From: a virus
Lineage: Duplodnaviria; Heunggongvirae; Uroviricota; Caudoviricetes
Direction: 5' to 3' (one strand)
Virus record (IMG/VR): IMGVR_UViG_2548876862_000021
Location: 1 to 13,456 of that record
Length of the DNA stretch: 13,456 nucleotides
Part shown: in pieces, positions 598 to 13,456 of the stretch
How the letters are laid out: every line of letters starts with the position of its first letter
How positions within the stretch are numbered: position 1 is the stretch's first letter
Notes under the pieces: generated by a model
The model's input: only the letters and a program-made list of their open reading frames with translations
What the model was told of the DNA's origin: nothing
Databases searched by the model: none
Translations under genes and position numbers: made by a program

Positions 598-766
598 CGT
601 CTTCTTCCTCGTACATTGAGCTATTCGGATCGCTCATCAGCTCTGCGCAGCAATCGGAGCATACGTGAACTTCCAGCACATGCAGTTTCTGACCGCAGTT
701 AGCGCACGTTAAAGCTCGCTCGACGCTTTCTTTCTGGTATTGAAGGGATTGGGATGGGCTAAGCAT
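590..766 (-). CDS. ninF: NinF-like small zinc-ribbon protein (58 aa)
   Basis: Hand-translated: MLSPSQSLQYQKESVERALTCANCGQKLHVLEVHVCSDCCAELMSDPNSSMYEEEDDE. Two CxxC-type pairs; start ATG overlaps the upstream stop (TAATG). Position matches ninF in the P22/lambda nin set. Below the 60-aa track threshold. Confidence 0.5.
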   Translation of the reverse strand: MLSPSQSLQYQKESVERALTCANCGQKLHVLEVHVCSDCCAELMSDPNSSMYEEEDDE

Positions 767-1125
767 TATTGGATTCTCTGCATCATGAGAAAGACAATCA
801 TGGCGGCGCGGAGGGGATTTTCATGTATAGCTCGCTTAGATTTACAGTAGGCCACACCGCGTGCACCCCACTCGTCTTCATCGAGATTGATAATGCTAAT
901 CCTGTATTTTTCAATAATCGGCCATGCGTCTGCTGGGTTTGCGCATGGGTTAAAGGAACCGCGCTCAACTTCTACTTCAACTGCGTCTCCGTTTACAATG
1001 TCTCCCTCAAATGAGACAAACACCATATCGCCATTCTCACCTTCTTTGTAATCCGGTGATCCGTTATGAATAGCTTCGAATACAGCCACGTTAATTTCAA
1101 AATCACTTAACTGTGAATAATCCAT
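766..1125 (-). CDS. NinX-like hypothetical protein (119 aa)
   Basis: Track ORF 766..1167; I prefer the internal ATG at 1125-1123, preceded by GAGGAA at about 7 nt and sitting 2 nt after the ninE-like stop. Sits between ninE-like and ninF-like as ninX does in P22. No recognisable catalytic motif. Confidence 0.5.
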   Translation of the reverse strand: MDYSQLSDFEINVAVFEAIHNGSPDYKEGENGDMVFVSFEGDIVNGDAVEVEVERGSFNPCANPADAWPIIEKYRISIINLDEDEWGARGVAYCKSKRAIHENPLRAAMIVFLMMQRIQ

Positions 1126-1127
1126 TG

Positions 1128-1304
1128 TCATTTCCTCGCACGATGTCTTAGCCACCGGATATCCCACAGGTGAGCCGTGTAATTGAAGGTTTTTACGTCA
1201 GATTCTTTTGGGATTGGCTTGGGTTTATTTCTGGAGCGCTTCGTTGGAAGGTATTTGCAGTTTTCGCAGATGATGTCGGTGATACTTCGTCGCTGTCGTC
1301 TCAT
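1128..1304 (-). CDS. ninE: NinE-like small basic protein (58 aa)
   Basis: Within track ORF 1128..1364, start at internal ATG 1304-1302, which overlaps the ninB stop (ATGA coupling). Protein [30 protein letters not shown]... Assignment by memory and position. Confidence 0.45.
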
Positions 1305-1741
1305 GCCGCCCTGTCTCCCCATCTCGCTTTCCACTCCAGAGCCAGTCGCGCTTCGTCTGACCACTTAACGCCATGTTCTGTACCGAATGCCTGTATAAGC
1401 TCTAATAGCTCCGCAAATTCGCTTACACGCATCCTGCTGGTTGACTGGCCTATTACCACAAAGCCATTCCCGGCAAGGTTAGGAACAACATCCTGCTGCT
1501 TTAATGCTGCGGTAAACACACACTTCCAGCTTTCTGCATCCAGCCAGCGACCATGCCATTCAACCTGACGAGAGACGTCACCAAGGCAAGCCCAAAGCTT
1601 TCGATTCTGGTCTAAGCTGCGGTTGCGTTCCTGAATGGTTACTACGATTGGTTTGGTTGGGTCTGGAAGAATTTGCTGTACCGCGTGAATAGCGTTTTGC
1701 TGATGTGCTGGGGATCGAATTTCAAAGGTTAGTTTTTTCAT
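1301..1741 (-). CDS. ninB: NinB (Orf-family recombination mediator)
   Basis: 146-aa [59 protein letters not shown]... recognised as lambda NinB family; same length as lambda NinB as I recall. Confidence 0.8.
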
Positions 1742-1934
1742 GACTTCCCTCTCTAACAGATTTCAGGTTATTCCACTCCGTTACCGCACTGCGATAATTC
1801 GCGGCCGCCACAGCGGCGTGGTTAGCGCAGTAGATTTGGCACCCGTTCTCCATGTCGAATATTGTCGGTGATTTTCCGCATTTACATTTTTTGGCACGCG
1901 GTGCGTCTGAACACATTCCGTTAACGGTGTCCAT
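1722..1934 (-). CDS. Small Cys-rich (putative zinc-binding) protein, nin-region, NinA/NinD-position
   Basis: 70-aa ORF with CxC...C...C pattern (CKCGK, CQIYC); GAGGGGGA Shine-Dalgarno upstream of ATG 1934; 3' end overlaps ninB start by 20 nt. Function not assignable. Confidence 0.5.
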   Translation of the reverse strand: MDTVNGMCSDAPRAKKCKCGKSPTIFDMENGCQIYCANHAAVAAANYRSAVTEWNNLKSVREGSHEKTNL

Positions 1935-1957
1935 CAGGATCCCCCTCGTTCTTAATC

Positions 1958-1990
1958 CAATAAAAAAGGGCTACTGTGTAAATAGCCCCT
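1958..1990 (-). terminator. Intrinsic terminator between helicase and nin genes (tR2-like position)
   Basis: On minus strand GGGCTA-TTTACACAG-TAGCCC stem-loop followed by TTTTTTATT, 29 nt downstream of the helicase stop. Confidence 0.5.
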
Positions 1991-2018
1991 GTTATTAGCT
2001 CAGTGATGTAGATGGTCA

Positions 2019-3455
2019 TCAGAATCCTCCTTTCTTCTTGGACTGCGGCTCCTCGCGTTCACGGCGGCGCATTTCAGCAGACTGTTGGTCTGTGTCATAA
2101 ATAGCGCCATTTGCCTGAATGCAATACACCGTGCCGGTATTGCCATGACGATTGAGACGAAGGATTAGTTCGGTTTCACCAGGTGGAACACTGTCATCAA
2201 AAGCACCTTCACGATGGATCCCCACCCAATAATCGCAATCCTGTTCAATCTGCCCTGTATCGCGCGAGTCACTTGGTAATGGGCGTTTATTGGTTCGGCT
2301 TTCCAATGCGCGGTTAAGCTGTGTCAGAAGCACAACAACGCAATCAAGCTCTTTGGCAAGGTTCTTCAATCCTTTGGTGATCATGCCGTAAGCAAGGTCG
2401 TTGCGATCGGCCTTCTCAGCAGTCATTAGTGTCAGGTAATCGACCAGAATCATGCCAACGCATCCTTTTTCTCGCTTGATTCGACGGCTTTCGCTGACGA
2501 TTTGAGCCAGAGATAATCCCGGCGTGTCGTCGATGTAAAGCATGTCGATTTCACTCAAGCGATTGGCTGTTTCGATCGCCCTGTTGAAGTCACCATCGTA
2601 ATCACCCTGATAGCCGTCATCGGCGTCATTTGTCGCCGGAAGGTAAAAAATATTCGGGTTAACACCAGACTTCTGCCCTACCAGTTTTTCCAGTATCTGG
2701 TCACCTGGCATTTCAAGGCTGAACATCAGAGCGGGCTTTTTCTCATGCACTGCGCAATTGATTGCCATCTGGCTGTATAGCGTCGTTTTCCCCATCTTAG
2801 GGCGAGCGCCAATGACAAACAGAGAGCCTTTCACCAGACCTTTCGGTGACAGCATCCTGTCCAGCGATGGGATCCCTGTGCTCATTCCTCGTTGTTCGCC
2901 TGACGGGTCAAATCGCTTCTCAAGGTCGCTAACCCAGTCTTCCATGACCTCACCAAATGAACGAAGGCCGCGACGCGATCCGGTTTTTGCATGGTCTGTC
3001 AGTTGCGTGAAAATCGACTGAATAGCTTCGTACTTCTGTGTTGCAGTCATTCCGTTGCGGGAATAGAGCAATTCCGTCGCTTCAGTCATGCGGTTGATGG
3101 CGTAGCGTTCCATTGCGGTTTCACGAACCTGCATTGCATAGGCAATGATGTTTGCTGCGCTTGGCGTGTTCTTTGCGATCTCAGCGATATAAGCAAAACC
3201 GCCAACAGACGCCGTTAACGATTTACGCTCCAGTTCATCGAAAAGCGTCAGGCCATCTACTGGCTTTTGCTCCCGGTGCATTCTGGTTATTTCTTCGAAA
3301 AGGATTTTGTGTGGTCGACTGTAAAATGAGTCAGGCTTCAGCATCGCCAGAACCTTCTGGACGCGCTCACTGCTGTCATCATCCAGAAGCAATCCACCAA
3401 TCACCGCCTGCTCTGCCTCGATGCTATGGGGCGGCGCATAAAAATTATCGGTCAT
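2019..3455 (-). CDS. Replicative DNA helicase, DnaB family (P22 gene 12-like)
   Basis: Strong resemblance to E. coli DnaB throughout (PHSIEAEQAVIGGLLLD, Walker A GARPKMGKTT, LVDYLTLM, LTQLNRALESR). Track starts at GTG 3470; I prefer ATG 3455-3453, preceded by GAGGGTG. Overlaps the O-like stop by 11 nt. Confidence 0.9.
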   Translation of the reverse strand: MTDNFYAPPHSIEAEQAVIGGLLLDDDSSERVQKVLAMLKPDSFYSRPHKILFEEITRMHREQKPVDGLTLFDELERKSLTASVGGFAYIAEIAKNTPSAANIIAYAMQVRETAMERYAINRMTEATELLYSRNGMTATQKYEAIQSIFTQLTDHAKTGSRRGLRSFGEVMEDWVSDLEKRFDPSGEQRGMSTGIPSLDRMLSPKGLVKGSLFVIGARPKMGKTTLYSQMAINCAVHEKKPALMFSLEMPGDQILEKLVGQKSGVNPNIFYLPATNDADDGYQGDYDGDFNRAIETANRLSEIDMLYIDDTPGLSLAQIVSESRRIKREKGCVGMILVDYLTLMTAEKADRNDLAYGMITKGLKNLAKELDCVVVLLTQLNRALESRTNKRPLPSDSRDTGQIEQDCDYWVGIHREGAFDDSVPPGETELILRLNRHGNTGTVYCIQANGAIYDTDQQSAEMRRREREEPQSKKKGGF

Positions 3456-4335
3456 CGTGTTCACCCTCACGAACTTTCAGGTAGGTATTATCGTTAAGCA
3501 GGAAATCAAATCCCTTTTTGTGCCAGACGGTTCCGCGCTGATGGTTTGGGCGCTCTTCGAACATCCATCGGCAATTTTCGCCTACGTAGCTCAAATAATT
3601 TCTCCAGTCCTGCATCGTGAAACCATGCCCGTCAAGCTGGCGGGTTATCACTCCGGCTTTGCGCCAGAACGTTCGGATCTGGTTTTTACGCTTGTCATTC
3701 AGTGCGCGGATTCTTGGCGCTTCAGGAAGGATTTCGTGGTAAGCATCGACAACATCCTGACAGCTAACGGAAGGTTTTTTCTTGTCAGACTTTTTGTCTG
3801 CTGTGGCACTCTCTAATACGTCAGTATTAGAGATATTATTTATATTATTGTTTATGGACAACCGTTGGACAACCGTTGGACAATCTCCGCTGAGAGCCGC
3901 GCCATTACTGGTGTTTGCGTTGGACAACCGTTGGACAACCGTTGGACAATTTTTTGCCTGAAAATCGTCATATTTAACGATTGTAAACAGGCTAAATTTC
4001 TTCCCCATCGAGCAAATATTAAGCATACCTTTCGACTCAAAAGTCCGTAATAAGCTCCGAACTTTGTTGTCGGGGATGAATGTTTCTCTGACCAGCGACG
4101 GGCGTCCAGTTATCATCTGACCGCGATCAACAGTTATCGGACCGATATCCGTATTGACGACAGTAGATTCGTGATTAGCCTTGAGGATTAAGTGAAGCCA
4201 AAGATGTACTGCCTGAGAGTCCTTATAGAGCCTGCTGTCCATAAACTGGCGGTGTATAGAGACATACCCCATACTGGATGCCTCCTGATGTTGTACAGGG
4301 TTATGCCTGTAATCAGCTAACTTAACGACGCCCAT
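3445..4335 (-). CDS. Replication initiator, lambda O-like (iteron-binding)
   Basis: 296-aa ORF immediately upstream of the helicase; contains the ori iterons inside its coding sequence (encoded peptide repeat CPTVVQRLSN), as in lambda O; AGGAG 6 nt upstream of the ATG. Confidence 0.75.
   Translation of the reverse strand: MGVVKLADYRHNPVQHQEASSMGYVSIHRQFMDSRLYKDSQAVHLWLHLILKANHESTVVNTDIGPITVDRGQMITGRPSLVRETFIPDNKVRSLLRTFESKGMLNICSMGKKFSLFTIVKYDDFQAKNCPTVVQRLSNANTSNGAALSGDCPTVVQRLSINNNINNISNTDVLESATADKKSDKKKPSVSCQDVVDAYHEILPEAPRIRALNDKRKNQIRTFWRKAGVITRQLDGHGFTMQDWRNYLSYVGENCRWMFEERPNHQRGTVWHKKGFDFLLNDNTYLKVREGEHDDR
3813..3950. repeat. Replication origin: two clusters of three direct ~11-bp iterons (GTTGGACAACC) plus flanking AT-rich stretch
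   Basis: Seen directly: 3856-3884 GGACAACCGTTGGACAACCGTTGGACAAT and 3919-3950 CGTTGGACAACCGTTGGACAACCGTTGGACAAT; AT-rich 3813-3855 (TATTAGAGATATTATTTATATTATTGTTTAT) lies downstream in the direction of O transcription, the lambda ori arrangement. Confidence 0.7.
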
Positions 4336-4483
4336 GTTTCACTCCTGCTTTGGCTAGTCTGTAAACACCAACAAGGCGCTCTGCGAACGCCCTGTTATTT
4401 GCTGCGGCTACCACTAATCCCTCAGGTGAATCAGGGTGTCGAATCTCTTCTTTTTCCTGGTATTTCTTACGACGTTTTGTCAT
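4322..4483 (-). CDS. Hypothetical small basic protein (53 aa) between cII and O
   Basis: Hand-found ORF MTKRRKKYQEKEEIRHPDSPEGLVVAAANNRAFAERLVGVYRLAKAGVKHGRR, AGGAG 6 nt upstream of ATG 4483-4481; 3' end overlaps the O start by 14 nt. Below track threshold. Confidence 0.35.
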   Translation of the reverse strand: MTKRRKKYQEKEEIRHPDSPEGLVVAAANNRAFAERLVGVYRLAKAGVKHGRR

Positions 4484-4517
4484 AATTACTCCTGTGGATT
4501 GATCCAGTCTTTCTACA

Positions 4518-4796
4518 TCAGGCCTCGAAGAATTCGCCGTTCTTCGGGGCTTTTTCTTTTGTCAGCATTCTGGCTACTTTCTTAGCCAGTTCCGCCAACT
4601 CCTCGTCTTCAACACCCCATTCAAGAACAGCCAGAAGCATTCCCATTTTGGGGATGAAGCTATCTTTCCATCGCGAAATTTGCGATTCATTAATCCCTAA
4701 CGCGTCGGCAACCTTTCGCTGACCACGTACAGCAATTCGATTCAGGATGTTGCTTGTAATTGCATTCGCTTTCTTGCGAGTACTTGTAAGTTGCAT
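4518..4796 (-). CDS. cII: cII-like transcriptional activator
   Basis: Track ORF 4518..4883 contains MQLTSTRKKANAITSNILNRIAVRGQRKVADALGINESQISRWKDSFIPKMGMLLAVLEWGVEDEE..., aligning with lambda CII (QISRWK...MLLAVLEWGV). Start set at ATG 4796-4794 so that nutR lies outside the gene. Confidence 0.8.
   Translation of the reverse strand: MQLTSTRKKANAITSNILNRIAVRGQRKVADALGINESQISRWKDSFIPKMGMLLAVLEWGVEDEELAELAKKVARMLTKEKAPKNGEFFEA
4522..4560 (+). terminator. Intrinsic terminator on the strand antisense to the cII 3' end (oop-like)
   Basis: 11-bp stem (GCCTCGAAGAA / TTCTTCGGGGC, one G-U) with 7-nt loop, directly followed by TTTTTCTTTT. Candidate extended -10 (TGtCATAAT, 4478-4486) about 40 nt upstream. 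Confidence 0.5.
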
Positions 4797-4854
4797 ATGT
4801 AAGTATTTCCTTAACAAATAAGAAGTTATGCGCATCAAATTATGCGCGTTGTAT

Positions 4855-4898
4855 TCCCGCATTTCGGCGGGAATGATGACCATGACTGTTAAAGAGCG
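4855..4898 (-). promoter_or_regulatory. nutR-like site: boxA (CGCTCTTTAACA) followed by boxB hairpin
   Basis: Read on minus strand: boxA at 4898-4887, 14-nt spacer, boxB TCCCGC-CGAAAT-GCGGGA at 4872-4855; the boxB 18-mer is identical to the one upstream of N. Confidence 0.6.
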
Positions 4899-4904
4899 GT
4901 GTTA

Positions 4905-5101
4905 CTATTTGTTTTTCTTGTTGCTTGGGAAAGGACGAACTTCCTCTCCAATCACACTGCCATCAGGCTTTACCGTAACCATGATGTTACGGCCTGCCAG
5001 AATGGCCTTGCTGATAGCGCACTGGATTACACCAAAGTCACTGGCTGCTTTAGCCTGTCCATGGATTTTGGCGTAATCGGCAAGTGTCATTCGAATCATA
5101 T
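4905..5101 (-). CDS. cro: Cro-like repressor
   Basis: [62 protein letters not shown] aligns with lambda Cro ([22 protein letters not shown]...PFPSNKK). Track start is GTG 5105; I prefer ATG 5101-5099 with GGAGAG upstream. Confidence 0.8.
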
Positions 5102-5128
5102 GCACTCTCCGTTATTAACCATGAACAA

Positions 5129-5198
5129 AGAATACCACAGGTATTCAAAGCAATCAATACTCAGGGTATTTTTAGTTTAAGTACCTTAGCTATTAGAA
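5129..5198. promoter_or_regulatory. OR region: three 15-bp operators (AATACC-N3-GGTATT) with divergent PR and PRM
   Basis: 5131-5145 AATACCACAGGTATT (perfect palindrome), 5156-5170 AATACTCAGGGTATT (1 mismatch), 5180-5194 AGTACCTTAGCTATT (2 mismatches); centre spacing 25 and 24 bp. PR on minus: -35 TTGATT (5157-5152), 17-bp spacer, -10 TATTCT (5134-5129). Candidate PRM -10 TAGAAT 5193-5198. Confidence 0.65.
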
Positions 5199-5205
5199 TT
5201 AAGCT

Positions 5206-5922
5206 ATGGAAAATAAAAAATCACTGACGACAGAACAGCTCGAAGACGCTAAGCGGCTTAAGGCTTTGTATGAGTCAAAAAAGAAAGAATTGGGAATAAC
5301 CCAATACTCAATCGCTGATGAACTGGGTATCACCCAAGGAGCGGTAGGGCATTATCTTAATGGCAGAAACGCGCTAAACGTTGAGGTCGCATCTGGTTTT
5401 GCACGTTTGTTGCAAGTCTCAATTGCTGATTTTAGCCAGTCAATTGCTGCCAAGGTTGCAGAACAGGCAGAAAGCCTTAAGAGCGATGCCAACGTAAGGT
5501 ATGCAGGGGAATACAGAGCAGGAAAGAGGTATCCGGTGTTAAGCAGTATCCAGGCTGGCTCGTGGTGTGAAGCATGCGAACCATACACCATTAAAGACAT
5601 AGATGTTTGGCTTGAGTCTGACGCGCATATTCAAGGTAATGCGTTCTGGCTTAAAGTGGAAGGTGATTCAATGACGGCACCGGTTGGGTTAAGCATTCCA
5701 GAGGGAACATTCGTTCTTTTCGATACCGGAAGGGAGGCGATCAACGGCAGCTTGGTCATAGCAAAACTTTCTGACTCTAACGAAGCAACATTCAAGAAGC
5801 TGATAATCGACGGCGGAAATAAATACCTCAAGGGACTTAATCCTGCATGGCCTCTCGTGCCAATCAATGGAAACTGCAAGATTATAGGCGTTGCAATTGA
5901 GACAAAACTAAGGCTGGTTTGA
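5206..5922 (+). CDS. cI: CI-type prophage repressor (HTH N-terminal domain plus S24 LexA-like autocleavage domain)
   Basis: 238 aa, collinear with lambda CI ([24 protein letters not shown] / FWLEVEGNSMTAP / FKKLIRD all matched by close variants). No Shine-Dalgarno upstream of the ATG. Confidence 0.9.
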   Translation: MENKKSLTTEQLEDAKRLKALYESKKKELGITQYSIADELGITQGAVGHYLNGRNALNVEVASGFARLLQVSIADFSQSIAAKVAEQAESLKSDANVRYAGEYRAGKRYPVLSSIQAGSWCEACEPYTIKDIDVWLESDAHIQGNAFWLKVEGDSMTAPVGLSIPEGTFVLFDTGREAINGSLVIAKLSDSNEATFKKLIIDGGNKYLKGLNPAWPLVPINGNCKIIGVAIETKLRLV

Positions 5923-5939
5923 TCACGCAAGGGGCGATT

Positions 5940-6308
5940 ATGGTTGGAACCGCTATAGCAAGCTTTTTTGGGATGTTGGCAATCTCGACAATTTACGGCT
6001 TAGCGCATGCTTTTATTGCGAAATCTCTATCAGAAAAAATAAGCCAGGCTTGGGCGCATAGATCAGCTCGTTTCATGATTCTGGTGATCATAGCAATACA
6101 AGGGATATCTGCATTTATCCTCTATGGATCAAGCTTATACCTATTGTATCAAGGCGCGACATTTACGCCTTACACCAGTGATTACGGAACTCTATACGAT
6201 GGTAGTGAAGACATCACTGTGGCTTGGATCGTCTTTGGTTTATCTATGGCCGTGTCTGTTGTAGCAGACATCATTAAGGTAATTCTCGTCTTAACCTTCG
6301 CTGACTAA
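5940..6308 (+). CDS. Small multi-pass membrane protein co-transcribed with cI (rexAB/sieB-position; candidate exclusion or abortive-infection factor)
   Basis: Track ORF 5919..6308 begins at a TTG overlapping the cI stop; ATG at 5940 has AAGGGG about 6 nt upstream. Several long hydrophobic segments consistent with transmembrane helices (AIASFFGMLAISTIYGLAHAFIA, FMILVIIAIQGISAFILYG, VAWIVFGLSMAVSVVADIIKVILVL). Confidence 0.6.
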   Translation: MVGTAIASFFGMLAISTIYGLAHAFIAKSLSEKISQAWAHRSARFMILVIIAIQGISAFILYGSSLYLLYQGATFTPYTSDYGTLYDGSEDITVAWIVFGLSMAVSVVADIIKVILVLTFAD

Positions 6309-6438
6309 CCTATAATCCCGGCAGCAATAGCTATCGGGATCCACTTCACATATCCCGCATAAAAAGCACTGAACAAGCAGACACCGAAAAAATAAATATC
6401 CTTTGTATTCATTTGCTTATCATTATTTCACCAAAAAT

Positions 6439-6480
6439 AAATACCTTGGGTATTTACACAATAAAATACCTACAGTATTC
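6439..6480 (+). promoter_or_regulatory. OL region: two operators of the same AATACC-N3-GGTATT family, with PL
   Basis: 6439-6453 AATACCTTGGGTATT (perfect), 6464-6478 AATACCTACAGTATT (1 mismatch), centres 25 bp apart. Candidate PL -35 TTTACA 6452-6457, 17-bp spacer, -10 TATTCT 6475-6480, the same -10 hexamer as PR. Confidence 0.6.
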
Positions 6481-6526
6481 TTTAGCCATCAGCAGGACGC
6501 TGGAAGCCAAACGGAACAGATTGGCA

Positions 6527-6568
6527 GGCTCTTTAACATTGATGGGATTGTCCCGCCGAAATGCGGGA
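6527..6568 (+). promoter_or_regulatory. nutL-like site: boxA (GGCTCTTTAACA) followed by boxB hairpin
   Basis: boxA 6527-6538 resembles the rrn/lambda boxA consensus; boxB TCCCGC-CGAAAT-GCGGGA at 6551-6568, identical to the nutR boxB; located between PL and N. Confidence 0.6.
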
Positions 6569-6675
6569 ACCAAAGAGTAGTTGGCTTTGGGGTGACGTGA
6601 AGTGCAGCTGCACGACGGCAACCGGAAGATAAGCACCCGGCGCGTCACCGCCAAAGTCAATCATCGGAGGTCAAC

Positions 6676-6975
6676 ATGACAGTAGTCATTACATATCTGG
6701 CTGACGATAACGCCAGAAATCGCCGCAGAGCACGCAGACAGGCTCAACGTGAGCAGGCAATGCAAGAGCAGCGACTGGCGCGAAAAATTGCGCTAAAGCT
6801 CTCTGGTTGCGTCAGAGCAGATAAAGCAGCATCACTCGGAAGCCTTCGCTGCAAGAAGGCAGAAGAAGTCGAGAGTAAACAGAATCGCATTTACTACCGC
6901 AAGCCACGCAGTGAAATGGGTGTGACTTGTGTTGGTCGCCAGAAAATGAAATTAAGCAGCAAACCACTTATTTGA
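6676..6975 (+). CDS. N: N-like transcription antiterminator
   Basis: 99 aa; N-terminal arginine-rich motif (NARNRRRARRQAQREQA); C-terminus RIYYRKPRSEMGVTCVGRQKMKLSSKPLI parallels lambda N (RTWYSKPGERGITCSGRQKIKGKSIPLI); GGAGG 6 nt upstream; directly downstream of nutL. Confidence 0.75.
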   Translation: MTVVITYLADDNARNRRRARRQAQREQAMQEQRLARKIALKLSGCVRADKAASLGSLRCKKAEEVESKQNRIYYRKPRSEMGVTCVGRQKMKLSSKPLI

Positions 6976-6983
6976 GGTGAGAT

Positions 6984-7070
6984 ATGGAAGAAGAATTTGA
7001 AGAGTTCGAAGAGCATCCGCAGGATGTGATGGAACAGTACCAGGACTATCCGTATGACTACGACTATTGA
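6984..7070 (+). CDS. Hypothetical 28-aa highly acidic, aromatic-rich peptide
   Basis: Hand-found: MEEEFEEFEEHPQDVMEQYQDYPYDYDY, preceded by GAGGTGAG. Very short, so coding status is uncertain. Confidence 0.3.
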   Translation: MEEEFEEFEEHPQDVMEQYQDYPYDYDY

Positions 7071-7254
7071 TAAAAATCAATGGTGTGGACAATTCAAGCG
7101 ATGCAATGGATGCAAGCTGCAATCGGAATGCATGGTTAAGCCTGAAGAAATGTTTCCTGTAATGGAAGATAGGAAATATGTCGATAAATGGGCAATACGA
7201 ACGACGGCAATGATTGCCAGAGAACTTGGTGAACTGAACAACAAGGCTGCCTGA
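7054..7254 (+). CDS. Hypothetical small Cys-containing protein (66 aa)
   Basis: Track ORF with C-x5-C-x2-C-x5-C spacing; weak ribosome-binding site; followed by a hairpin plus T-run. Confidence 0.35.
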   Translation: MTTTIDKNQWCGQFKRCNGCKLQSECMVKPEEMFPVMEDRKYVDKWAIRTTAMIARELGELNNKAA

Positions 7255-7290
7255 TGGTGGCCTTTATTTTCTTATTTGAGAGGAATTAAT

Positions 7291-7914
7291 ATGTCATCAA
7301 TCCGCTTAACTACGAGAATGAAAGAGGAAATCGCTCGTAACGCTTTAATTAAGTCTGGGGTTTTCACTGAGCTTGAAGAAGTAACAAAGTTAAAGAACCA
7401 GCTTGCACTTGACGCCAGAGTTATTGCGTTTGGCGGTAAAAAGAAAACTGAGGAAGTGGATCAGTTATCATCCAAGTTGGTAGCTATAAGTGAAGAACTT
7501 GAAAAGATGGGATGTTCATTTTACTCATACGATTTTCGTTCTACTTCAATTTATCTGACTGTATCTGGCAGAAGGGTTGGATGGCATTCATATGGGAAAG
7601 ACGGCAACGGCGAAGATATATTTCCCCCTACTCCAACCAAAGATAAATGCATGTTTGACGCAGAACACGAAATAACAAAAAGGTTTGATGAAATCTGCGC
7701 ATTGCAACAAAAACTTGAAGCCAAGAAAAAGGATATCGAATCAAATGTATGGGCTGCTTTGAACTCAGTCACAACAGTTAAGCGACTTATTGAGGTTTGG
7801 CCTGAAAGCAAAGAATTGCTACCAAAAGAAGCAGATAAAGCAAGTACAGCACTTCCTGCTTTACGGGTAGAAGATTTGAATAAGATGACTGGACTTCCTT
7901 CCGAGGCTGCATAG
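7291..7914 (+). CDS. Hypothetical protein (207 aa), first gene of low-GC cassette
   Basis: Track ORF 7276..7914; start set at ATG 7291 preceded by GAGAGGAA. GC about 38-40% in hand-counted 60-nt samples versus about 48-50% in flanking genes. No recognisable motif. Confidence 0.6.
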   Translation: MSSIRLTTRMKEEIARNALIKSGVFTELEEVTKLKNQLALDARVIAFGGKKKTEEVDQLSSKLVAISEELEKMGCSFYSYDFRSTSIYLTVSGRRVGWHSYGKDGNGEDIFPPTPTKDKCMFDAEHEITKRFDEICALQQKLEAKKKDIESNVWAALNSVTTVKRLIEVWPESKELLPKEADKASTALPALRVEDLNKMTGLPSEAA

Positions 7915-7977
7915 TCGGCCTTTATTTTTAGCATAAACAACAGAATAAACACTGCACTGAATTATTTGAGGTTAGAT

Positions 7978-8448
7978 ATGACAAAATCATGGAGCGTACC
8001 TTTTCCTGAATCAGAAACTGAACATGAGGGAATGCCTGTTTTCTGGAGATTCCAGGCGACAGTTGAAGAAGATGGAATCAAAATATTCGCACTTCAATAT
8101 ATAGCTTTTCATCAGACAGAGCATTATGCATGGTTGGTTCCTGCGCATTGGATTGTTAATTTTAAACCAGCACCAAATCAGTGGTTACAGGAATGGAAAC
8201 AAAAGAGAAATAGATATGCAATTAAGAAAGTAGCAAAAAATGCAGAAAGATCTTTTGCATTCCCAACGAAGAAACTTGCCATTGAGAGTTTATTGCGCCG
8301 GAAGAAATACCATTTAATGAGAATCAAACAAGATTTGGCTGTTGTATCAACTCTTGTTGATGGGATGAAGAATATTGATACATCAACACCAGATATTGAA
8401 TATAACTTTGGGCACAACCAAGAAACAGAAAATTGGGTATTTTATTAG
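7978..8448 (+). CDS. Hypothetical protein (156 aa), second gene of low-GC cassette
   Basis: Track ORF 7966..8448; start set at ATG 7978 preceded by GAGGT. Low GC; no recognisable motif. Confidence 0.6.
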   Translation: MTKSWSVPFPESETEHEGMPVFWRFQATVEEDGIKIFALQYIAFHQTEHYAWLVPAHWIVNFKPAPNQWLQEWKQKRNRYAIKKVAKNAERSFAFPTKKLAIESLLRRKKYHLMRIKQDLAVVSTLVDGMKNIDTSTPDIEYNFGHNQETENWVFY

Positions 8449-8552
8449 TACGAGTAAGCACTATGTATTCATTCCAACGAGTGAATACACGGAGCAATGT
8501 CGCTCGTAACTAAACAGGAGCCGACTTGTTCTGATTATTGGAAATCTTCTTT

Positions 8553-8578
8553 GCCCTCCAGTGTGAGGGCTTTTTTAT
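8553..8578 (+). terminator. Intrinsic terminator downstream of the low-GC cassette
   Basis: GCCCTC-CAGTGT-GAGGGC stem-loop immediately followed by TTTTTTAT. Confidence 0.6.
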
Positions 8579-8642
8579 ATGCATACCAATAACGCTTCAC
8601 TTGAGGCGTTTTCGTTATGCAATCAAATATAAGGAGTTACCC

Positions 8643-8777
8643 ATGATGCACTTTCAGCTCGCGGGTAGCGGCGTCATGTCCGCTTTCTACCCGCACGAAT
8701 CTGAATTATCACGCCGAGTTAAACAATTAATCAGAGCAGCAAAGAAACAACTGGAGGCGTTATGCGCAATGAGATAG
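8643..8777 (+). CDS. cIII: cIII-like small protein (44 aa; FtsH-inhibitor family)
   Basis: MMHFQLAGSGVMSAFYPHESELSRRVKQLIRAAKKQLEALCAMR resembles the lambda CIII core (AIAGWPVAGCPSESLLERITRKLR); AAGGAG upstream. The 79-aa track ORF 8538..8777 is an upstream TTG extension of it. Confidence 0.55.
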   Translation: MMHFQLAGSGVMSAFYPHESELSRRVKQLIRAAKKQLEALCAMR

Positions 8778-8914
8778 CCATCAATCACCAGATGCTTCGT
8801 GCTGCACAGAACAAAGCAGTAATAGCTAGATTTATTGGTGATTCCAAAATGTGGCTTGAAGCAAATAAAGCGATGAAATCAGCTATCAACCTTCCGTGGT
8901 ATCGCAGGAAATGA
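8762..8914 (+). CDS. Kil-like small protein (50 aa), overlapping the cIII-like 3' end
   Basis: Hand-found: MRNEIAINHQMLRAAQNKAVIARFIGDSKMWLEANKAMKSAINLPWYRRK. GGAGG upstream; overlap with cIII mirrors the lambda cIII/kil arrangement. Similarity to lambda Kil is from uncertain recall of an ATFIGDEKMF-type motif. Confidence 0.4.
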   Translation: MRNEIAINHQMLRAAQNKAVIARFIGDSKMWLEANKAMKSAINLPWYRRK

Positions 8915-8989
8915 GTTTTACAGATAACTGGTCAGACGAAGAATTCATTCGTCAGATGAAAGAATTAATCGGTAACGAAGGAGATATTC

Positions 8990-9160
8990 ATGTCACTTGC
9001 AACCACAGTGAAGGAGAGCAAGTTACAGAGACGCATGTACACGCAGAAAGCTCTCTGGTATCGCCATAATGGTGACCGCGAAGGAATGCGGGTATGCCTT
9101 AATTTGTCCCGAGTCGAAGTATTAAATCAGCGTTATTTCCTTGGGCCGTGTCCATTCTGA
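8990..9160 (+). CDS. Hypothetical small protein (56 aa)
   Basis: Hand-found: MSLATTVKESKLQRRMYTQKALWYRHNGDREGMRVCLNLSRVEVLNQRYFLGPCPF. AAGGAG upstream; ends 8 nt before the SSAP gene. Confidence 0.35.
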   Translation: MSLATTVKESKLQRRMYTQKALWYRHNGDREGMRVCLNLSRVEVLNQRYFLGPCPF

Positions 9161-9168
9161 GGTGAATT

Positions 9169-9876
9169 ATGGATTTGAATAAATTCGATGAGCCATTCAG
9201 CCCTGAAGATATCGAATGGCGAATACAGCAAAGCGGTAAAACACGCGATGGCAAAGTGTGGGCTATGGTGCTGGCTTATGTCACGAACCGGGCAATCATG
9301 AAACGCCTGGACGATGTTTGTGGCAAAGCAGGATGGCGCAATGAATACCGCGATATTCCCAACAACGGCGGCGTTGAATGCGGCATATCAATAAAGATTG
9401 ATTCCGAATGGGTAACCAAATGGGATGCTGCTGAAAACACGCAGGTAGAAGCCGTCAAAGGTGGTCGTTCAGGTGCAATGAAGCGCGCTGCCGTTCAGTG
9501 GGGAATCGGTCGGTATCTGTATAACCTTGAGGAAGGTTTCGCACAAACATCTCTCGACAAAAAGCAGGGATGGCACAGGGCAAAACTCAAGGATGGAACA
9601 GGATTTTACTGGCTCCCTCCATCGCTGCCAGGCTGGGCAATCCCAGCATCAGATAACAAACCATCACCAGAAAATACCAACCAGAAATCTCCATCGGTTG
9701 ACTGCGAGCAAATCCTGAAAGACTTCAGCGATTATGCGTCAACAGAAACTGACAAGAAAAAACTCATCGAGCGTTATCAGCGTGACTGGCAATTAATGGC
9801 TGGCAACGAGGAAGCGCAGGCTAAATGCGTTCAGGTAATGAACATCAGAGTTAACGAACTAAAACAGGCGGCATAA
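9169..9876 (+). CDS. Single-strand annealing protein, Rad52/Sak-like
   Basis: 235 aa; region KGGRSGAMKRAAVQWGIGRYLY fits the Rad52-family pattern; stop abuts the SSB start (TAAATG); GAGGTG upstream. Confidence 0.6.
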   Translation: MDLNKFDEPFSPEDIEWRIQQSGKTRDGKVWAMVLAYVTNRAIMKRLDDVCGKAGWRNEYRDIPNNGGVECGISIKIDSEWVTKWDAAENTQVEAVKGGRSGAMKRAAVQWGIGRYLYNLEEGFAQTSLDKKQGWHRAKLKDGTGFYWLPPSLPGWAIPASDNKPSPENTNQKSPSVDCEQILKDFSDYASTETDKKKLIERYQRDWQLMAGNEEAQAKCVQVMNIRVNELKQAA

Positions 9877-10383
9877 ATGGCAAGCAGAGGCGTAAATAAG
9901 GTGATTATCCTTGGTCGGGTAGGACAAGACCCGGAAGTTCGATACTCACCATCAGGAACAGCGTTCGCTAACCTGACAATAGCCACGTCAGAACAATGGC
10001 GAGATAAAAATACTGGCGAGCAAAAGGAATTGACTGAATGGCATCGTGTTGCTGTATCCGGGAAACTGGCTGAGGTCGTGGGGCAGTATGTGAAAAAAGG
10101 TGATCAGATTTATTTCGAGGGAATGCTGAGAACCAGAAAGTGGAAAGACCAGTCAGGACAAGACCGTTACACAACCGAGGTTCATGTCGGAATTAATGGC
10201 GTGATGCAAATGCTTGGCGGCATTGGCGACAGCAAACAACAAGCAGCCAGCAGGCAATCACAGAAGCCACAGCAGCAATCATCACCAGCACAACACAACG
10301 AACCACCTATGGATTTTGACGACGATATACCCTTTGCACCAGTAACTCTCCCCTTCCCTCGTCACGCTATTCACGCAATTTAA
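9877..10383 (+). CDS. ssb: Single-stranded DNA-binding protein (SSB) with a 15-aa extension beyond the canonical DDDIPF tip
   Basis: N-terminus [23 protein letters not shown]..., [14 protein letters not shown] and [11 protein letters not shown] all match E. coli SSB; the ORF continues [15 protein letters not shown] before the stop. Confidence 0.9.
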
Positions 10384-10396
10384 TCAGGAGAAAATC

Positions 10397-10690
10397 ATGC
10401 CAGCGCCTCTGTATTGTGCGGATGACGCGCGCCGCTGTTCCGGCAATTCCGTATCGGAGGTGCTGGATAAATTCAGAAAAAACTACGATCGAATAATGTC
10501 TCTACCGCAGGAAACGAAAGAGGAAAAGGAATTTCGCCACTGCGTATGGCTTGCAGAGAAAGAAGAACGCGAGCGAATTTACCAGACATCAATCCGACCA
10601 TTCCGCAAAGCCACATATACCCACTTCCCTGAAATTGACCCGCGCCTGCGTAATTACCGCTCACGCTATGGCGCTATCAGTAATGACTGA
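10397..10690 (+). CDS. Hypothetical protein (97 aa)
   Basis: Track ORF; AGGAG 6 nt upstream of the ATG. Confidence 0.55.
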
Positions 10691-10700
10691 GGAATTTACC

Positions 10701-10865
10701 ATGAGAGGACTTGCATACAATCCCGGCATTCTTCCGGCAGAAATGATTATTCGCCAACGCGTAAAGCCAATGCCATCGAGAGAGGAATTGCTTAAGAGAA
10801 ATAGTTTCGGTTCTGTTAATGACAACAAATATCTGAATGCGATGTTGCGGAGTGGGAAGAAATGA
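10701..10865 (+). CDS. Hypothetical small protein (54 aa)
   Basis: In-frame ATG inside track ORF 10551..10865, preceded by GAGGAA; stop overlaps the next start (ATGA). Confidence 0.4.
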
Positions 10866-11374
10866 AACAAATGTCACTAATTGAGATGGATGGTTTTCTG
10901 AAAGGTAAATGCATCCCAAGTGATTTAAAGGTTAACGAAACAACCGCTGAATATCTGGTGCGTAAGTTTGGTGAACTCGAATCAAAACTGGAAACGGCGT
11001 TGCGGGAGTGTCGTTCTGCTGGAATCACGATTGACAACCTTGAAGCCAAGTGCGATGCGCTGGCGGCGGAGAATGCGGCACTGAAGGCTGGCGCTATGGA
11101 CGAAATCAAGGTTATCAACCGTGGAGGTCAGGCATATTGCGTAAAAGATGGAGTGCAAGTTAATCCCATGTATGCAAGAGGGTGGAATGACTATCGCGCA
11201 AAGTCTATGCAATCAGACACCCCAGCCACCGATGCTTTCCTGGCTGAAGTTCGGGCGCAGGGCGTGGAGATGGCTATGGAGCATATGCAGTCGAGCGGTT
11301 CGTTAACATTTGGAGATTGCTACATATCACTTAACGAGTTCGCCGCCCAGCTTCGCAAAGGAGGCAACCAGTGA
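10862..11374 (+). CDS. Hypothetical protein (170 aa), predicted coiled-coil segment
   Basis: Track ORF; heptad-like segment [40 protein letters not shown]; translationally coupled on both sides. Confidence 0.6.
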
Positions 11375-11886
11375 GCGAAATTAATTACCAGGCACTGCGT
11401 GAGGCGGCGGAACGTGCAATTCCAGCAATGGAACGCCTGTTAATGTTGCCAGCTGATGATGATTTGTTAAGTGAACAGGAACTTAAAGATTACGGTGTGG
11501 ATATTGATGCGCTCAACGCCTTCAAATTTCTGACCGGACCAGAAACCGTGCTGGCGCTGCTGGATGAACGGGAAAGAAACCAGCAATACATCAAACGCCG
11601 CGACCAGGAGAACGAGGATATTGCGCTAACGGTAGGGAAACTGCGTGTTGAGCTTGAAGCAGCAAAATCAAAACTCAACGAGCAGCGTGAATATTACGAA
11701 GGCGTTATCTCTGATGGGAGCAAGCGTATTGCTGAACTGGAGGAGCGGGAAATACTGCTCCCGGAACGTAGCAGCATGCTTCATCGAACAGATTTTCACG
11801 ATGATTACCAAACGGTAATGGCATACAAAGTTTCTGAAGTCATCGCTGCAATCCGCGTCGCTGGCATTCGCATCAAAGGAGAGTGA
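11371..11886 (+). CDS. Hypothetical protein (171 aa), possibly Ead/Ea22-like
   Basis: Track ORF with GTG start overlapping the previous stop, AAAGGAGG 6 nt upstream; Ead/Ea22-like label is from memory of similar prophage proteins, unverified. Confidence 0.5.
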   Translation: MSEINYQALREAAERAIPAMERLLMLPADDDLLSEQELKDYGVDIDALNAFKFLTGPETVLALLDERERNQQYIKRRDQENEDIALTVGKLRVELEAAKSKLNEQREYYEGVISDGSKRIAELEEREILLPERSSMLHRTDFHDDYQTVMAYKVSEVIAAIRVAGIRIKGE

Positions 11887-11887
11887 T

Positions 11888-12151
11888 ATGGCAACTTTAA
11901 CAAAAAAAGAACGGGCATGGTTGAACGAATTACAGGACGTTCTTGATCGCTGCCCATCACCGAAAAAAATTGGTTTTTACACCATTGGCGATAAAAGCAT
12001 TTACCTGTATGACCTGCGCCGCATGGATGAAATCATGGAGGCTCTTGATAATCGTTCGTCGATGGATTGGTGTGTTGCTGTCCATGATATGAATGCCGGA
12101 TTTGATGAAAGGATTTTGTTCCCCTCATCAGTTGAAAGCACTGCGGGTTAA
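11888..12151 (+). CDS. Hypothetical protein (87 aa)
   Basis: Track ORF; AAAGGAG upstream; 1-nt gap after the previous stop. Confidence 0.55.
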   Translation: MATLTKKERAWLNELQDVLDRCPSPKKIGFYTIGDKSIYLYDLRRMDEIMEALDNRSSMDWCVAVHDMNAGFDERILFPSSVESTAG

Positions 12152-12161
12152 GGAGTAACAC

Positions 12162-12848
12162 ATGACCACTATTACCAAAGAACGTATTGAATTGTTCATT
12201 AAAAATCCGCTTGAAAACGGGCTTACCCGTGGTGAACAAATGGAACTGGCACGGATTGCGCTGGCATCGCTGGAAGCAGATCCAGTTGCTTATATTTTCA
12301 AACATCCGGCCGGGAAATTATTCTGGTCTTTAACGGATGAAAGCAATAAAGAGCAAGCGGACGTTATTCCTGTTTATGCTGCCGCGCCTGCGTCGGTTGT
12401 GCCGGATAATGCATCAGAGCCTCTTGCTTATGCTTACAAAGAGCTTACGCCTGAGATTATGCGCAACCATTTAGCTGTATTCGAGCGATATGGAATAGCC
12501 CCAAACGATAGCTCTACCACAATTCAGGCACTGCGAATCGCGCTGGATGGCATAGAGCGGAGAGACGCCATGCTTCATGGTGCCGAACCTGTAAGCCAAA
12601 CTTACAAGTTGAACCAGCTATCGGGCAACTATCCGGTAACTCCGGATGGTTGGATAAGATGTAGTGATCGAATGCCGGAAGACACCAAAATGTTACTGGC
12701 ATTTAGTCAAGGTGAAATCGTGGCCGCATATTGGAACTGGGTTGTAAATCCAATTGATTACAAAAAATATAGAGCTTTCACGTATTTATCAGGAAATATC
12801 TTGGATGACGTAACTCACTGGATGCCGCTACCAGAGCCTCCACTTTGA
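12162..12848 (+). CDS. Hypothetical protein (228 aa), C-terminal DUF551-like region
   Basis: Track ORF; TAAGGAG upstream; C-terminal ...VTHWMPLPEPPL resembles the DUF551 signature as I recall it. Confidence 0.55.
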   Translation: MTTITKERIELFIKNPLENGLTRGEQMELARIALASLEADPVAYIFKHPAGKLFWSLTDESNKEQADVIPVYAAAPASVVPDNASEPLAYAYKELTPEIMRNHLAVFERYGIAPNDSSTTIQALRIALDGIERRDAMLHGAEPVSQTYKLNQLSGNYPVTPDGWIRCSDRMPEDTKMLLAFSQGEIVAAYWNWVVNPIDYKKYRAFTYLSGNILDDVTHWMPLPEPPL

Positions 12849-12944
12849 AAGCGAAGCTTATACATATCTTTTACATCAGCAATCTATTGTTAATCTCCAA
12901 TCAATGTTACGTTGTCATCTCACTCATGCTTTGGAGGTAGTGAT

Positions 12945-13124
12945 ATGTCTTGTCCAAAATGCGGTTCTGGAAATATTGCAAAAGAAAAAACAATGCGTGG
13001 ATGGTCTGATGATTATGTGTGCTGCGATTGCGGATACAACGACTCTAAAGACGCATTTGGAGAGCGTGGTAAAAACGATTTTGTCAAAATTAATAAAGGA
13101 CGCGAAGGCAACGAAAAAAGCTAA
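12945..13124 (+). CDS. Small zinc-ribbon protein (59 aa)
   Basis: MSCPKCGSGN...CCDCGYN (CxxC...CxxC); GGAGG upstream of ATG 12945. The track ORF 12912..13124 uses an upstream TTG. Confidence 0.5.
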   Translation: MSCPKCGSGNIAKEKTMRGWSDDYVCCDCGYNDSKDAFGERGKNDFVKINKGREGNEKS

Positions 13125-13187
13125 TTTATTTATTCATATATGAAAACAATGTAACCAATATTCGAATTGAAGAACTGAAAGAACACC

Positions 13188-13212
13188 AAGCCGCCTGATG
13201 GCGGTTTTTTAT
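13188..13212 (+). terminator. Intrinsic terminator ending the leftward-operon accessory block
   Basis: CCGCC-TGAT-GGCGG stem-loop followed by TTTTTTATT. Confidence 0.6.
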
Positions 13213-13255
13213 TACCTGATTTGCAGGTTCGATTCCCTATTCGGAGATAGCACTC

Positions 13256-13456
13256 ATGCAACACGAACTACAGCCTGATTCCCTGGTTGATTTGAAATTC
13301 ATCATGGCCGATACTGGCTTCGGTAAAACCTTCATCTATGACCGGATTAAGTTCGGAGACCTGCCTAAAGCCAAAGTTATCCACGGGCGAGCAAGATGGT
13401 TATATCGTGACCATTGTGAATTCAAAAATAAGCTCTTAAGCCGCGCCAATGGGTAA
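13256..13456 (+). CDS. Excisionase / AlpA-family DNA-binding protein (probable Xis)
   Basis: 66 aa; ...MADTGFGKTFIYDRIKFGDLPKAKVIHGRARWLY... fits the AlpA/excisionase pattern; GGAGAT upstream; stop at the last base of the window. Confidence 0.5.
   Translation: MQHELQPDSLVDLKFIMADTGFGKTFIYDRIKFGDLPKAKVIHGRARWLYRDHCEFKNKLLSRANG

Follow-up and report, generated by a model that had tools for sequence, protein, structure and literature searches.

Why should a phage gene preserve the acidic tip through which SSBs (proteins that bind single-stranded DNA) engage their partners, and then extend the protein past it? Bacterial-type SSBs organize genome maintenance through this tip, and host SSB-interacting proteins, more than 12 of them, are understood to grip the alpha-carboxylate of its terminal Phe. 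The question is raised by an ssb gene in positions 1 to 13,456 of the virus record IMGVR_UViG_2548876862_000021 (Caudoviricetes), a stretch of 13,456 nucleotides that we refer to as the window. The gene (9877..10383, plus strand, 168 codons and a stop) was recognized from the list of open reading frames (ORFs) and its translation, a match to PF00436, and nucleotide identity to the ssb genes of phages HK75, mEp235 and mEpX2. An earlier note, made from the letters alone, had described an otherwise textbook SSB with 15 residues past DDDIPF at 10336-10383; translation reproduced the coordinates and the peptide exactly, and the textbook character of the remainder was borne out by its Pfam match, disordered linker and acidic tip. 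The explanation we favor, to which as a whole we give a probability of about 0.55, is that the 15 codons encode a real C-terminal module that is translated and kept by selection, and that SSBs extended in this way form a widespread mobile-element subfamily (prophages and phage-plasmids) in Gammaproteobacteria. A narrower joint claim is very likely to be correct: the extension is conserved, selected and native to the SSB, and the junction between 10335 and 10336 is an insertion site for a homing endonuclease.

Most of the protein is conventional. The OB (oligonucleotide/oligosaccharide-binding) fold, which serves single-stranded DNA (ssDNA) binding and tetramerization, spans residues 6-104 (9892..10188, plus strand) and matches PF00436 over these residues (E=1.6e-36). 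AlphaFold2, run with a 30-sequence alignment, produced a confident beta-barrel for this domain (per-residue confidence, pLDDT, about 70-84). The model is of a single chain, and homotetramer formation and ssDNA binding by the window SSB are predicted from the family. A Gln/Pro/Ser-rich, intrinsically disordered linker follows (residues 105-142; 10189..10302, plus strand), with pLDDT below 50 from residue 107 on and values of 31-40 in the SSB tail, which is predicted to be disordered; no self-docking of the tail was seen in this model. The linker leads into the acidic SSB C-terminal (SSB-Ct) tip, residues 143-153 (10303..10335, plus strand), which carries the motif D-F-D-D-D-I-P-F. Fold, disordered linker and acidic motif are thus those of a canonical bacterial-type SSB. 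The tip, however, is internal and its Phe carboxylate is not free, because Phe153 (codon 10333-10335) is followed by 15 further codons (residues 154-168; 10336..10380, plus strand) up to a TAA stop (10381..10383). The NCBIfam profile TIGR00621 'ssb' scores 166.9 bits against a cut-off of 53.95 and ends at residue 153, and residues 154-168 lie outside every SSB profile. The window protein is a bacterial-type SSB by fold and tip that departs from the canonical terminal-tip interaction architecture. It has in common with the E. coli chromosomal SSB the PF00436 OB fold, a disordered Gln/Pro-rich linker and an identical 11-residue tip; the E. coli protein ends in a free Phe, whereas the window SSB is 15 residues longer and is prophage-borne in an erf-ssb-abc2 module. 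A frameshift that would give a canonical end after Phe was considered by eye and rejected: the +1 frame reads IPF-HQ*, and the -1 frame runs on without an early stop.

Length alone proves nothing, since 15 stop-free codons arise by chance about half the time ((61/64)^15 = about 0.5), and the case for a real extension therefore rests on conservation. The ssb gene, complete with extension and stop, is present at 98.7-99% nucleotide identity in HK75, mEp235 and mEpX2, and at 88.8% in the Salmonella phages epsilon34 and g341c. The tail is contained in 408 of 5,426 complete E. coli genomes, and in 297 of them tip and tail are contiguous in an annotated ssb. A wider sample came from 5.8 billion protein clusters, among which a search picked out the best 120 relatives (90%-identity SSB clusters). 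The extension is exactly 15 amino acids long in 109 of these 120, all full-length and with sources in Klebsiella, Citrobacter, Enterobacter, Kluyvera, Pluralibacter, Phytobacter, Salmonella and E. coli; the others are three truncated entries that carry the extension, one that is frameshifted, and seven with canonical ends.

Conservation is uneven along the protein. Mean pairwise identity among 110 extended SSBs was 0.88 in the OB fold, 0.55 in the linker, 0.95 in the tip and 0.82 in the extension. Within the extension P155 and L158 are invariant and F160, P161, R162 and H163 nearly so. The F/A-P junction between tip and extension is invariant, and each variant has non-polar C-terminal residues; nearly all of them finish in I, L, M or V, preceded by residues that vary (HAI, YVI, YAL, LAM, HCM). 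For 40 distinct DNA alleles, the ratio of non-synonymous to synonymous diversity (pN/pS, Nei-Gojobori) was about 0.28 in the extension and 0.11 in the tip, with synonymous diversity (pS) of 0.49 and 0.83, respectively. In other genera each extension position is encoded by 3-8 distinct codons, which specify conservative sets of amino acids. The refuting outcome anticipated by the earlier note, an extension unique to this isolate, did not materialize: it is conserved in many viable phages and in hundreds of genomes.

The extension also reaches far beyond the close relatives. In a set of 185,579 species, each represented by one genome, a degenerate DNA pattern encoding D-D-I-P-F-[AS]-P-x-x-L-x-[FY] located 36 loci, of which 33 are real; by our own estimate about 1.6 chance matches are expected. 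Among the taxa are Proteus, Providencia, Moellerella, Pantoea, Sodalis, a Symbiopectobacterium plasmid, a Vibrio plasmid, Pseudoalteromonas, Glaciecola, Oceanisphaera, Oceanimonas and Zobellella. Their extensions include the forms APIGLPYPRHAIYVI, APIGLPFPSHSIYAL, APIGLQYPALLSVM and APLGLQFPALLLAM, and prophages and plasmids from Morganellaceae, Vibrio, Alteromonadales and Aeromonadales carry related forms of 14-15 amino acids. A core, A-P-[VIL]-[GT]-L-[PQ]-[FY]-P, is followed by a variable segment with a non-polar end. The window SSB has the features by which we delimit the subfamily, namely 14-15 residues past IPF, a core of the form A/S-P-[VIL]-[GT]-L-[PQ]-[FY]-[PG], a non-polar C-terminus, and a gene that belongs to a mobile element (here a lambdoid early region) and is not the housekeeping ssb. 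The DNA identity, the constant length of 15 residues and the diverged forms in four gammaproteobacterial orders place the extension above chance.

At least four scaffolds carry tip and extension together: the canonical PF00436 SSB, a divergent PF00436 SSB (MAINTITISG...), the phrog_743 SSB (243 amino acids, no Pfam match) and an OB-like protein (P0134). Upstream neighbors of extended SSBs include RecT, ERF, Rad52-like Erf, a phage Dam, an antirepressor and DUF2303, and some have no annealing protein. This variety indicates that the extension is not tied to a single annealing-protein family and that its contexts are mobile elements; a specific link to the adjacent Rad52-like Erf, which the earlier note had raised, is therefore not supported. 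Most SSBs of conjugative plasmids end at the tip, and the extension is present only in some plasmids of Vibrio, Aeromonas and Salmonella Newport. When the final 33 residues were searched, without a profile, against 1.84 billion representatives, there were only 14 matches, mostly fragments, a figure that says little about prevalence because extended and canonical SSBs co-cluster at 50% identity. The same search exposed P0134 as a further scaffold and one chimera, P0122, a predicted protein of 120 amino acids in which an unrelated N-terminus is joined to the ssb tail, apparently by deletion.

In sister phages the junction between tip and extension is occupied. The ssb genes of Huey and Sf6 have canonical ends (...MNFDDEIPF* and ...NFDDSDIPF*), each followed by an ORF of 155-159 amino acids that encodes a putative HNH endonuclease (L001 1978-2445 in Huey, L003 1984-2463 in Sf6, and L129 ~3468-3947 in Salmonella). 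At the Salmonella locus L129 the DNA reads ...CCT TTT, then a cassette (TAG GAGTAAGC ATG ... endonuclease ... GAC GAG), and then GCA CCA GTA.... The cassette, which comprises a stop codon, a ribosome-binding site and the endonuclease reading frame from its ATG, lies exactly between TTT (Phe) and GCA (Ala) without the loss of a single ssb nucleotide, and the junctions of Huey and Sf6 are arranged in the same way. Because the cassette supplies a stop codon, the SSB regains a free ...IPF end. The endonuclease ORF lacks a separate stop and continues through the final 14-15 codons of ssb, which supply its C-terminus, to the TAA that closes ssb in the window (10381..10383), as seen in an alignment of the window with HK75, Huey and Sf6 and in the junction sequences. 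As a result, the last 14 residues of Sf6 gp26 and of the Huey endonuclease are identical to the SSB extension in both protein and DNA; the Sf6 record itself mentions 14 residues in common with 'E. coli SSB'. The Sf6-type and Huey-type endonuclease lineages are only 48% identical and have the same junction. The exact 45-nucleotide tail was located at 119+ IMG/VR loci, where it is always preceded by ...IPFA (about 95) or by the endonuclease end ...IYPDEE (about 30) and followed by abc2 or a DnaQ-like exonuclease gene. By comparison with the Salmonella L129, Huey and Sf6 junctions, the window is the uninterrupted, endonuclease-free allele, with an empty site between the Phe153 and Ala154 codons (10335..10336).

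The endonuclease ORF matches PHROG 2340 'endonuclease' (E=2.6e-47), a profile that stops at residue 143, before the tail, and more weakly phrog_2633 'endonuclease VII' (E=1.6e-4); Pfam, NCBIfam and PDB sequence searches returned no match. An alignment of homologues has an invariant AHHCDY...WLC..(C)H..WH..N and N-terminal CxxC pairs, which may represent a His-Me finger with zinc-binding Cys pairs. The annotation given to relatives is I-KsaII, an intron-encoded enzyme of Staphylococcus phage K. Homologues elsewhere end ...P[IV]Y* or in unrelated short tails, the tails that are linked to an endonuclease match the local ssb extension variant (e.g., RHTIHAI), the insertion is clean, and at locus L251 the endonuclease gene lies downstream of an intact extended ssb. 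These four observations argue that the extension is native to the SSB and was captured by the endonuclease; judged from the aligned sequences, they show it to be older than, and independent of, the HNH homing endonuclease. Derivation of the endonuclease end HKHNKPIY from ssb QHNEPPM was also considered and ruled out, as a Pectobacterium homologue natively ends ...HLNNDPVY*. Endonuclease lineages without a fused extension likewise end in P/G-[DE]-[DE]... (PEDLEAA*, GEAA*, GDEEPAF*).

Presence or absence at one precise site in near-identical genomes, with variant flanks, is the pattern expected of homing, and it is what distinguishes Huey from the window and HK75. Huey and window ssb differ at 2 positions in the first 429 nucleotides and at 7 in the last 30, and the tips (window 10303-10335, L001 1930-1962 in Huey) end AAC TTC GAC GAT GAG ATC CCA TTT in Huey and GAT TTT GAC GAC GAT ATA CCC TTT in the window. 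Tips adjacent to an endonuclease are always DDSDIPF, DDEIPF or DSDIPF and never DDDIPF, whereas ~95% of extended genes without an endonuclease have DDDIPF; in phage CP-1639 a Huey-like NFDDEIPF tip is joined to the extension without an endonuclease gene. The tract of variants between Huey and the window, the split of tip alleles and the I-KsaII annotations of relatives suggest that the element is mobile and a candidate homing endonuclease. Like other phage HNH homing endonucleases (I-KsaII, PHROG 2340), it is polymorphic at one site and has a clustered variant tract beside the insertion; it is unusual in having no stop of its own and in borrowing the last 14-15 codons of the host gene, and it is absent from the window, which has the empty site. 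A gene of the Sf6 type is present in 99 E. coli genomes, in whose RefSeq records it is unannotated.

Two further phages carry homologues of the endonuclease next to altered or unusual tips. In Vibrio phage 252E42.2 (L128 ~1075-1125) the ssb tip is broken (...DFDDD-RS-stop, then in-frame GAC ATC CCG TTC TAA, that is, DIPF*), and an endonuclease homologue begins about 80 nucleotides downstream; this could be a 9-nucleotide insertion that disrupts the target site and removes the IPF end of the SSB. In Pectobacterium phage DU_PP_I a 405-residue phrog_4477 protein of unassigned function and without a Pfam match (L127 269-1486) ends ...DVDFDLDIPF*, an SSB-Ct-like tip on a scaffold that is not an SSB, and the endonuclease homologue (L127 1486-1926) overlaps the stop codon of its gene.

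What might the extension do? The closest experimental parallel is the fusion of green fluorescent protein (GFP) to the C-terminus of E. coli SSB, in which, as in the window SSB, extra polypeptide comes immediately behind the tip's last Phe (Dubiel et al. 2020, PMC7293020). That fusion left ssDNA binding intact and abolished detectable binding of exonuclease I (ExoI), and when plasmid-borne it behaved as a dominant negative (PMC7293020). It is the best experimental proxy for the effect of a natural extension on tip docking, with the difference that GFP is an artificial, folded domain of 27 kDa, whereas the window extension is natural, short, predicted to be disordered and conserved in sequence. 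On this analogy the mode of docking used by ExoI, RecQ, PriA, chi and others should be blocked or weakened now that Phe153 is no longer C-terminal, and it is plausible that a buried DDDIPF tip alters the choice of partners. A mere cap would need no conserved sequence, so the extension would also act as a separate short linear docking motif, and its predicted disorder is as expected of one. The motif is kept across hosts, scaffolds and annealing proteins, which points to a conserved and probably host-encoded partner. The ssDNA intermediates on which Erf acts would then be coated by an SSB that fails to recruit host nucleases and helicases, a shielding that would complement the neutralization of RecBCD by Abc2. 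We rate this combination of masking with a new docking motif at a little under even odds.

Several points weigh against this account, of both the selection and the function. The search patterns by which the alleles behind the pN/pS values were gathered bias this sample in part. Relative to the window, the extension DNA is identical at 48/48 nucleotides in epsilon34, 48/48 in CP-1639 and 46/48 in ECP1, while the OB-fold DNA of the same genes is 87%, 68% and 71% identical; identity of 48/48 exceeds the conservation that synonymous drift allows and in the E. coli/Salmonella subgroup may reflect recombination or co-conversion rather than selection on the protein. Purifying selection acts more strongly on the internal tip (pN/pS 0.11, identity 0.95) than on the extension. 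A dead tip should decay, and pure masking therefore cannot be the whole story. Sf6 and Huey, in which the endonuclease splits off the extension and the SSB is unmasked, are viable phages, which makes the extension dispensable under laboratory conditions at the least. The SSBs of lambdoid recombination modules are, moreover, described as experimentally unstudied (PMC12315714). A more elaborate version we offer tentatively, as the less probable form: a bipartite tail of mobile-element SSBs in Gammaproteobacteria, not recognized before, in which the AP-x-G/T-L-P/Q-F/Y-P motif deliberately internalizes a host-identical SSB-Ct, either moving the SSB from the host interactome to another conserved partner or making exposure of the tip conditional, so that the ssDNA of the element would be shielded or re-routed, with an ssb-tip-specific homing endonuclease toggling lineages between masked and unmasked states.

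Conditional exposure is at the center of a first alternative, in which a host protease trims the extension and so exposes DDDIPF, or the extension acts as a degron that keeps the level of the mobile-element SSB low. The strong purifying selection on a host-identical internal tip is easily explained if that tip is later exposed, and the invariant F/A-P junction and the non-polar end of all variants (...HAI, ...YVI, ...LAM) would suit a processing or degradation signal. The ssrA tag and the C-motifs of ClpX are C-terminal determinants of degradation, and Parsell, Silber and Sauer reportedly described non-polar C-termini as determinants of cytoplasmic proteolysis in E. coli in 1990. We know of no protease that cuts after ...IPF. 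The part of the extension that is best conserved is its N-proximal core, AP-x-[GT]-L-[PQ]-[FY]-P, whereas the last residues vary between clades (RHAIHAI, ALLLAM), and there is no match to an LAA-type consensus. An excess of C-terminally blocked SSB is harmful (PMC7293020), which also favors this alternative, yet on balance we consider regulated unmasking or degradation unlikely.

A second alternative drops the masking and makes it incidental: the extension would be a docking motif for one specific, conserved host factor, such as the sliding clamp, through a hexapeptide-like motif of the form x-hydrophobic-x-L-x-hydrophobic (PVTLPF or PIGLQY), for which Hda (QLSLPL) and Pol IV (QLVLGL) offer comparisons. 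The spacing of the core, hydrophobic-x-L-x-aromatic (V-T-L-P-F, I-G-L-Q-Y), fits within a disordered tail, and retention of the motif across hosts, scaffolds and annealing-protein neighbors is what a conserved host partner, and not a phage one, would produce. Against the clamp in particular, position 1 is an invariant Pro (110/110) and not the Gln that is said to be typical of the clamp-binding consensus of Dalrymple in 2001, so that the resemblance is only a lead, and a literature search returned no link between SSBs and clamp-binding motifs. We regard this explanation as quite unlikely.

The peptide itself becomes incidental if, in the lambdoid phages from E. coli and from Salmonella, the 45-nucleotide tail is kept mainly as a DNA-level feature, either a recombination junction or the homology arm or target of the homing endonuclease. 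The identity of 48/48 nucleotides between phages whose OB-fold DNA is 68-87% identical would follow directly, as would the lower synonymous diversity in the extension (pS 0.49) than in the tip (0.83), and the tail forms the invariant right flank of the endonuclease, bordering abc2 or the DnaQ-like exonuclease gene. Elsewhere, however, the DNA has diverged freely and the peptide has been kept, and the motif is also present in Vibrio, in Alteromonadales and on other scaffolds. Folding gave no sign of RNA structure (z = +1.05), and Rfam gave only a sub-threshold chance match. A purely DNA-level role is improbable. The 3' end of ssb does form a sharp mosaic boundary, seen when window 10336-10383 is compared with epsilon34, CP-1639 and ECP1; it is possibly the product of co-conversion tied to endonuclease homing, or a module junction.

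The shared C-terminus of SSB and endonuclease could in principle be read in the opposite direction, as the scar of endonuclease loss: an ancestral ssb would have ended ...DDDIPF*, and an internal deletion would have left behind 14 residues of the endonuclease. The identity of those residues in Sf6 gp26 and the Huey endonuclease, noted in the Sf6 record, is as this proposal requires. Yet endonuclease homologues in other contexts have no such tail and the family profile ends before it, the extension is present in orders and on scaffolds without an adjacent endonuclease, junction and length are the same in all 109 clusters, and the cassette is a clean insertion at Phe/Ala, with L251 keeping an intact extended ssb upstream of the endonuclease; the scar is thus very improbable and effectively refuted. 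A sequencing or assembly error, or recent loss of the stop in a degenerating prophage, which the earlier note had raised a priori and for which we found nothing further, has a negligible chance of being right given the identical frame and stop of viable phages, sequenced independently, and of 297 of the 5,426 complete E. coli genomes, the purifying selection on the extension, and an intact surrounding early region (ninX, ninB, DnaB-like helicase, cII, cI, ral, cIII, kil, erf, ssb, abc2).

A selectively maintained post-tip module, the reading that we prefer, can be placed among phage SSBs that have already been named. The window SSB belongs to the same gene family, and occupies the same module position, as the lambdoid 'SSB-1' proteins (Sf6 gp27, ES18 gp48; Zheng et al. 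2025, PMC12315714), and the ssb bodies of the Sf6 and window types are interchangeable mosaics. Sf6 gp27 ends ...DDSDIPF* since the HNH endonuclease gene splits its extension off, whereas the window SSB is unsplit. The 2025 survey of lambdoid recombination modules that names 'SSB-1' does not mention the extension (PMC12315714), and in the epsilon34 genome paper the gene is named a bacterial-type SSB with no further remark (PMC2629481). Functional specialization of a phage SSB tail has a precedent in HK620, where six residues at the end of the SSB (NDYPPF) are the handle for stimulation of its cognate annealing protein Sak4 (Hutinet et al. 2018, PMC5928155). The HK620 protein is of an unrelated family and has a truly terminal tip with no post-tip extension, and extended SSBs have no link to a particular annealing-protein family. 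Literature searches, including full text, with the tip and extension peptide strings found no relevant paper, and searches on C-terminal extensions of prophage SSBs, on the Sf6 HNH gene with ssb and on clamp-binding motifs returned no description of the feature. The conserved post-tip module and its relation to the endonuclease appear to be new, as we found no description of either; the sequences themselves are public and annotated as SSB.

Extended SSBs make up a large natural class in which the tip is perfectly kept yet non-terminal; about 5% of the complete E. coli genomes have one, and the class spans four gammaproteobacterial orders. Should recruitment be blocked or re-routed by the extension, prophages and phage-plasmids could protect their recombination and replication intermediates from host nucleases, or, alternatively, could interfere with host SSB hubs through mixed tetramers. 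The class is relevant to recombineering, where the pairing of SSB and annealing protein limits portability, to defense systems that sense phage SSBs, and to antibacterial design directed at the SSB-Ct. Alleles split by the endonuclease are natural controls, in which the same SSB occurs with and without its extension.

The genes around ssb form an intact lambdoid early region. The stop of an erf-like single-strand annealing protein gene of the Rad52/22 fold (9169..9876, plus strand; PF04098 Rad52_Rad22, E=5e-26) abuts the ssb start, and its counterparts are annotated Erf-like in Huey, Sf6 and epsilon34. The anti-RecBCD gene abc2 (10397..10690, plus strand; PF11043 Anti-RecBCD_p2, E=1.1e-61) begins 13 nucleotides past the ssb stop and is preceded by a GGAG ribosome-binding site at 10387-10390. 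The plus strand carries cI (S24 peptidase/HTH), ral, an Nmad5 gene, cIII, kil, erf, ssb, abc2, and Ead/Ea22 and DUF551 genes; ninX, ninB, a DnaB-like helicase gene and cII are on the minus strand. In epsilon34-like phages a DnaQ-like 3'-5' exonuclease gene (PF16473-type; L004 2016-2564, L007 2472-3020) directly follows ssb and its extension; the same pairing recurs in the annotation of Vibrio plasmids and is absent from the window. The ORFs at 6676-6975 and 7966-8448 have no Pfam match. The gene for nucleotide-modification-associated domain 5 (Nmad5; PF18757, E=5e-70) adjoins ral in the early-left operon (7276-7914 and 7054-7254). Residue 7 of Abc2 is Cys in the window (TGT, 10415-10417) and Gly (GGT) in HK75, Huey, Sf6, ECP1 and CP-1639, a single non-synonymous difference.

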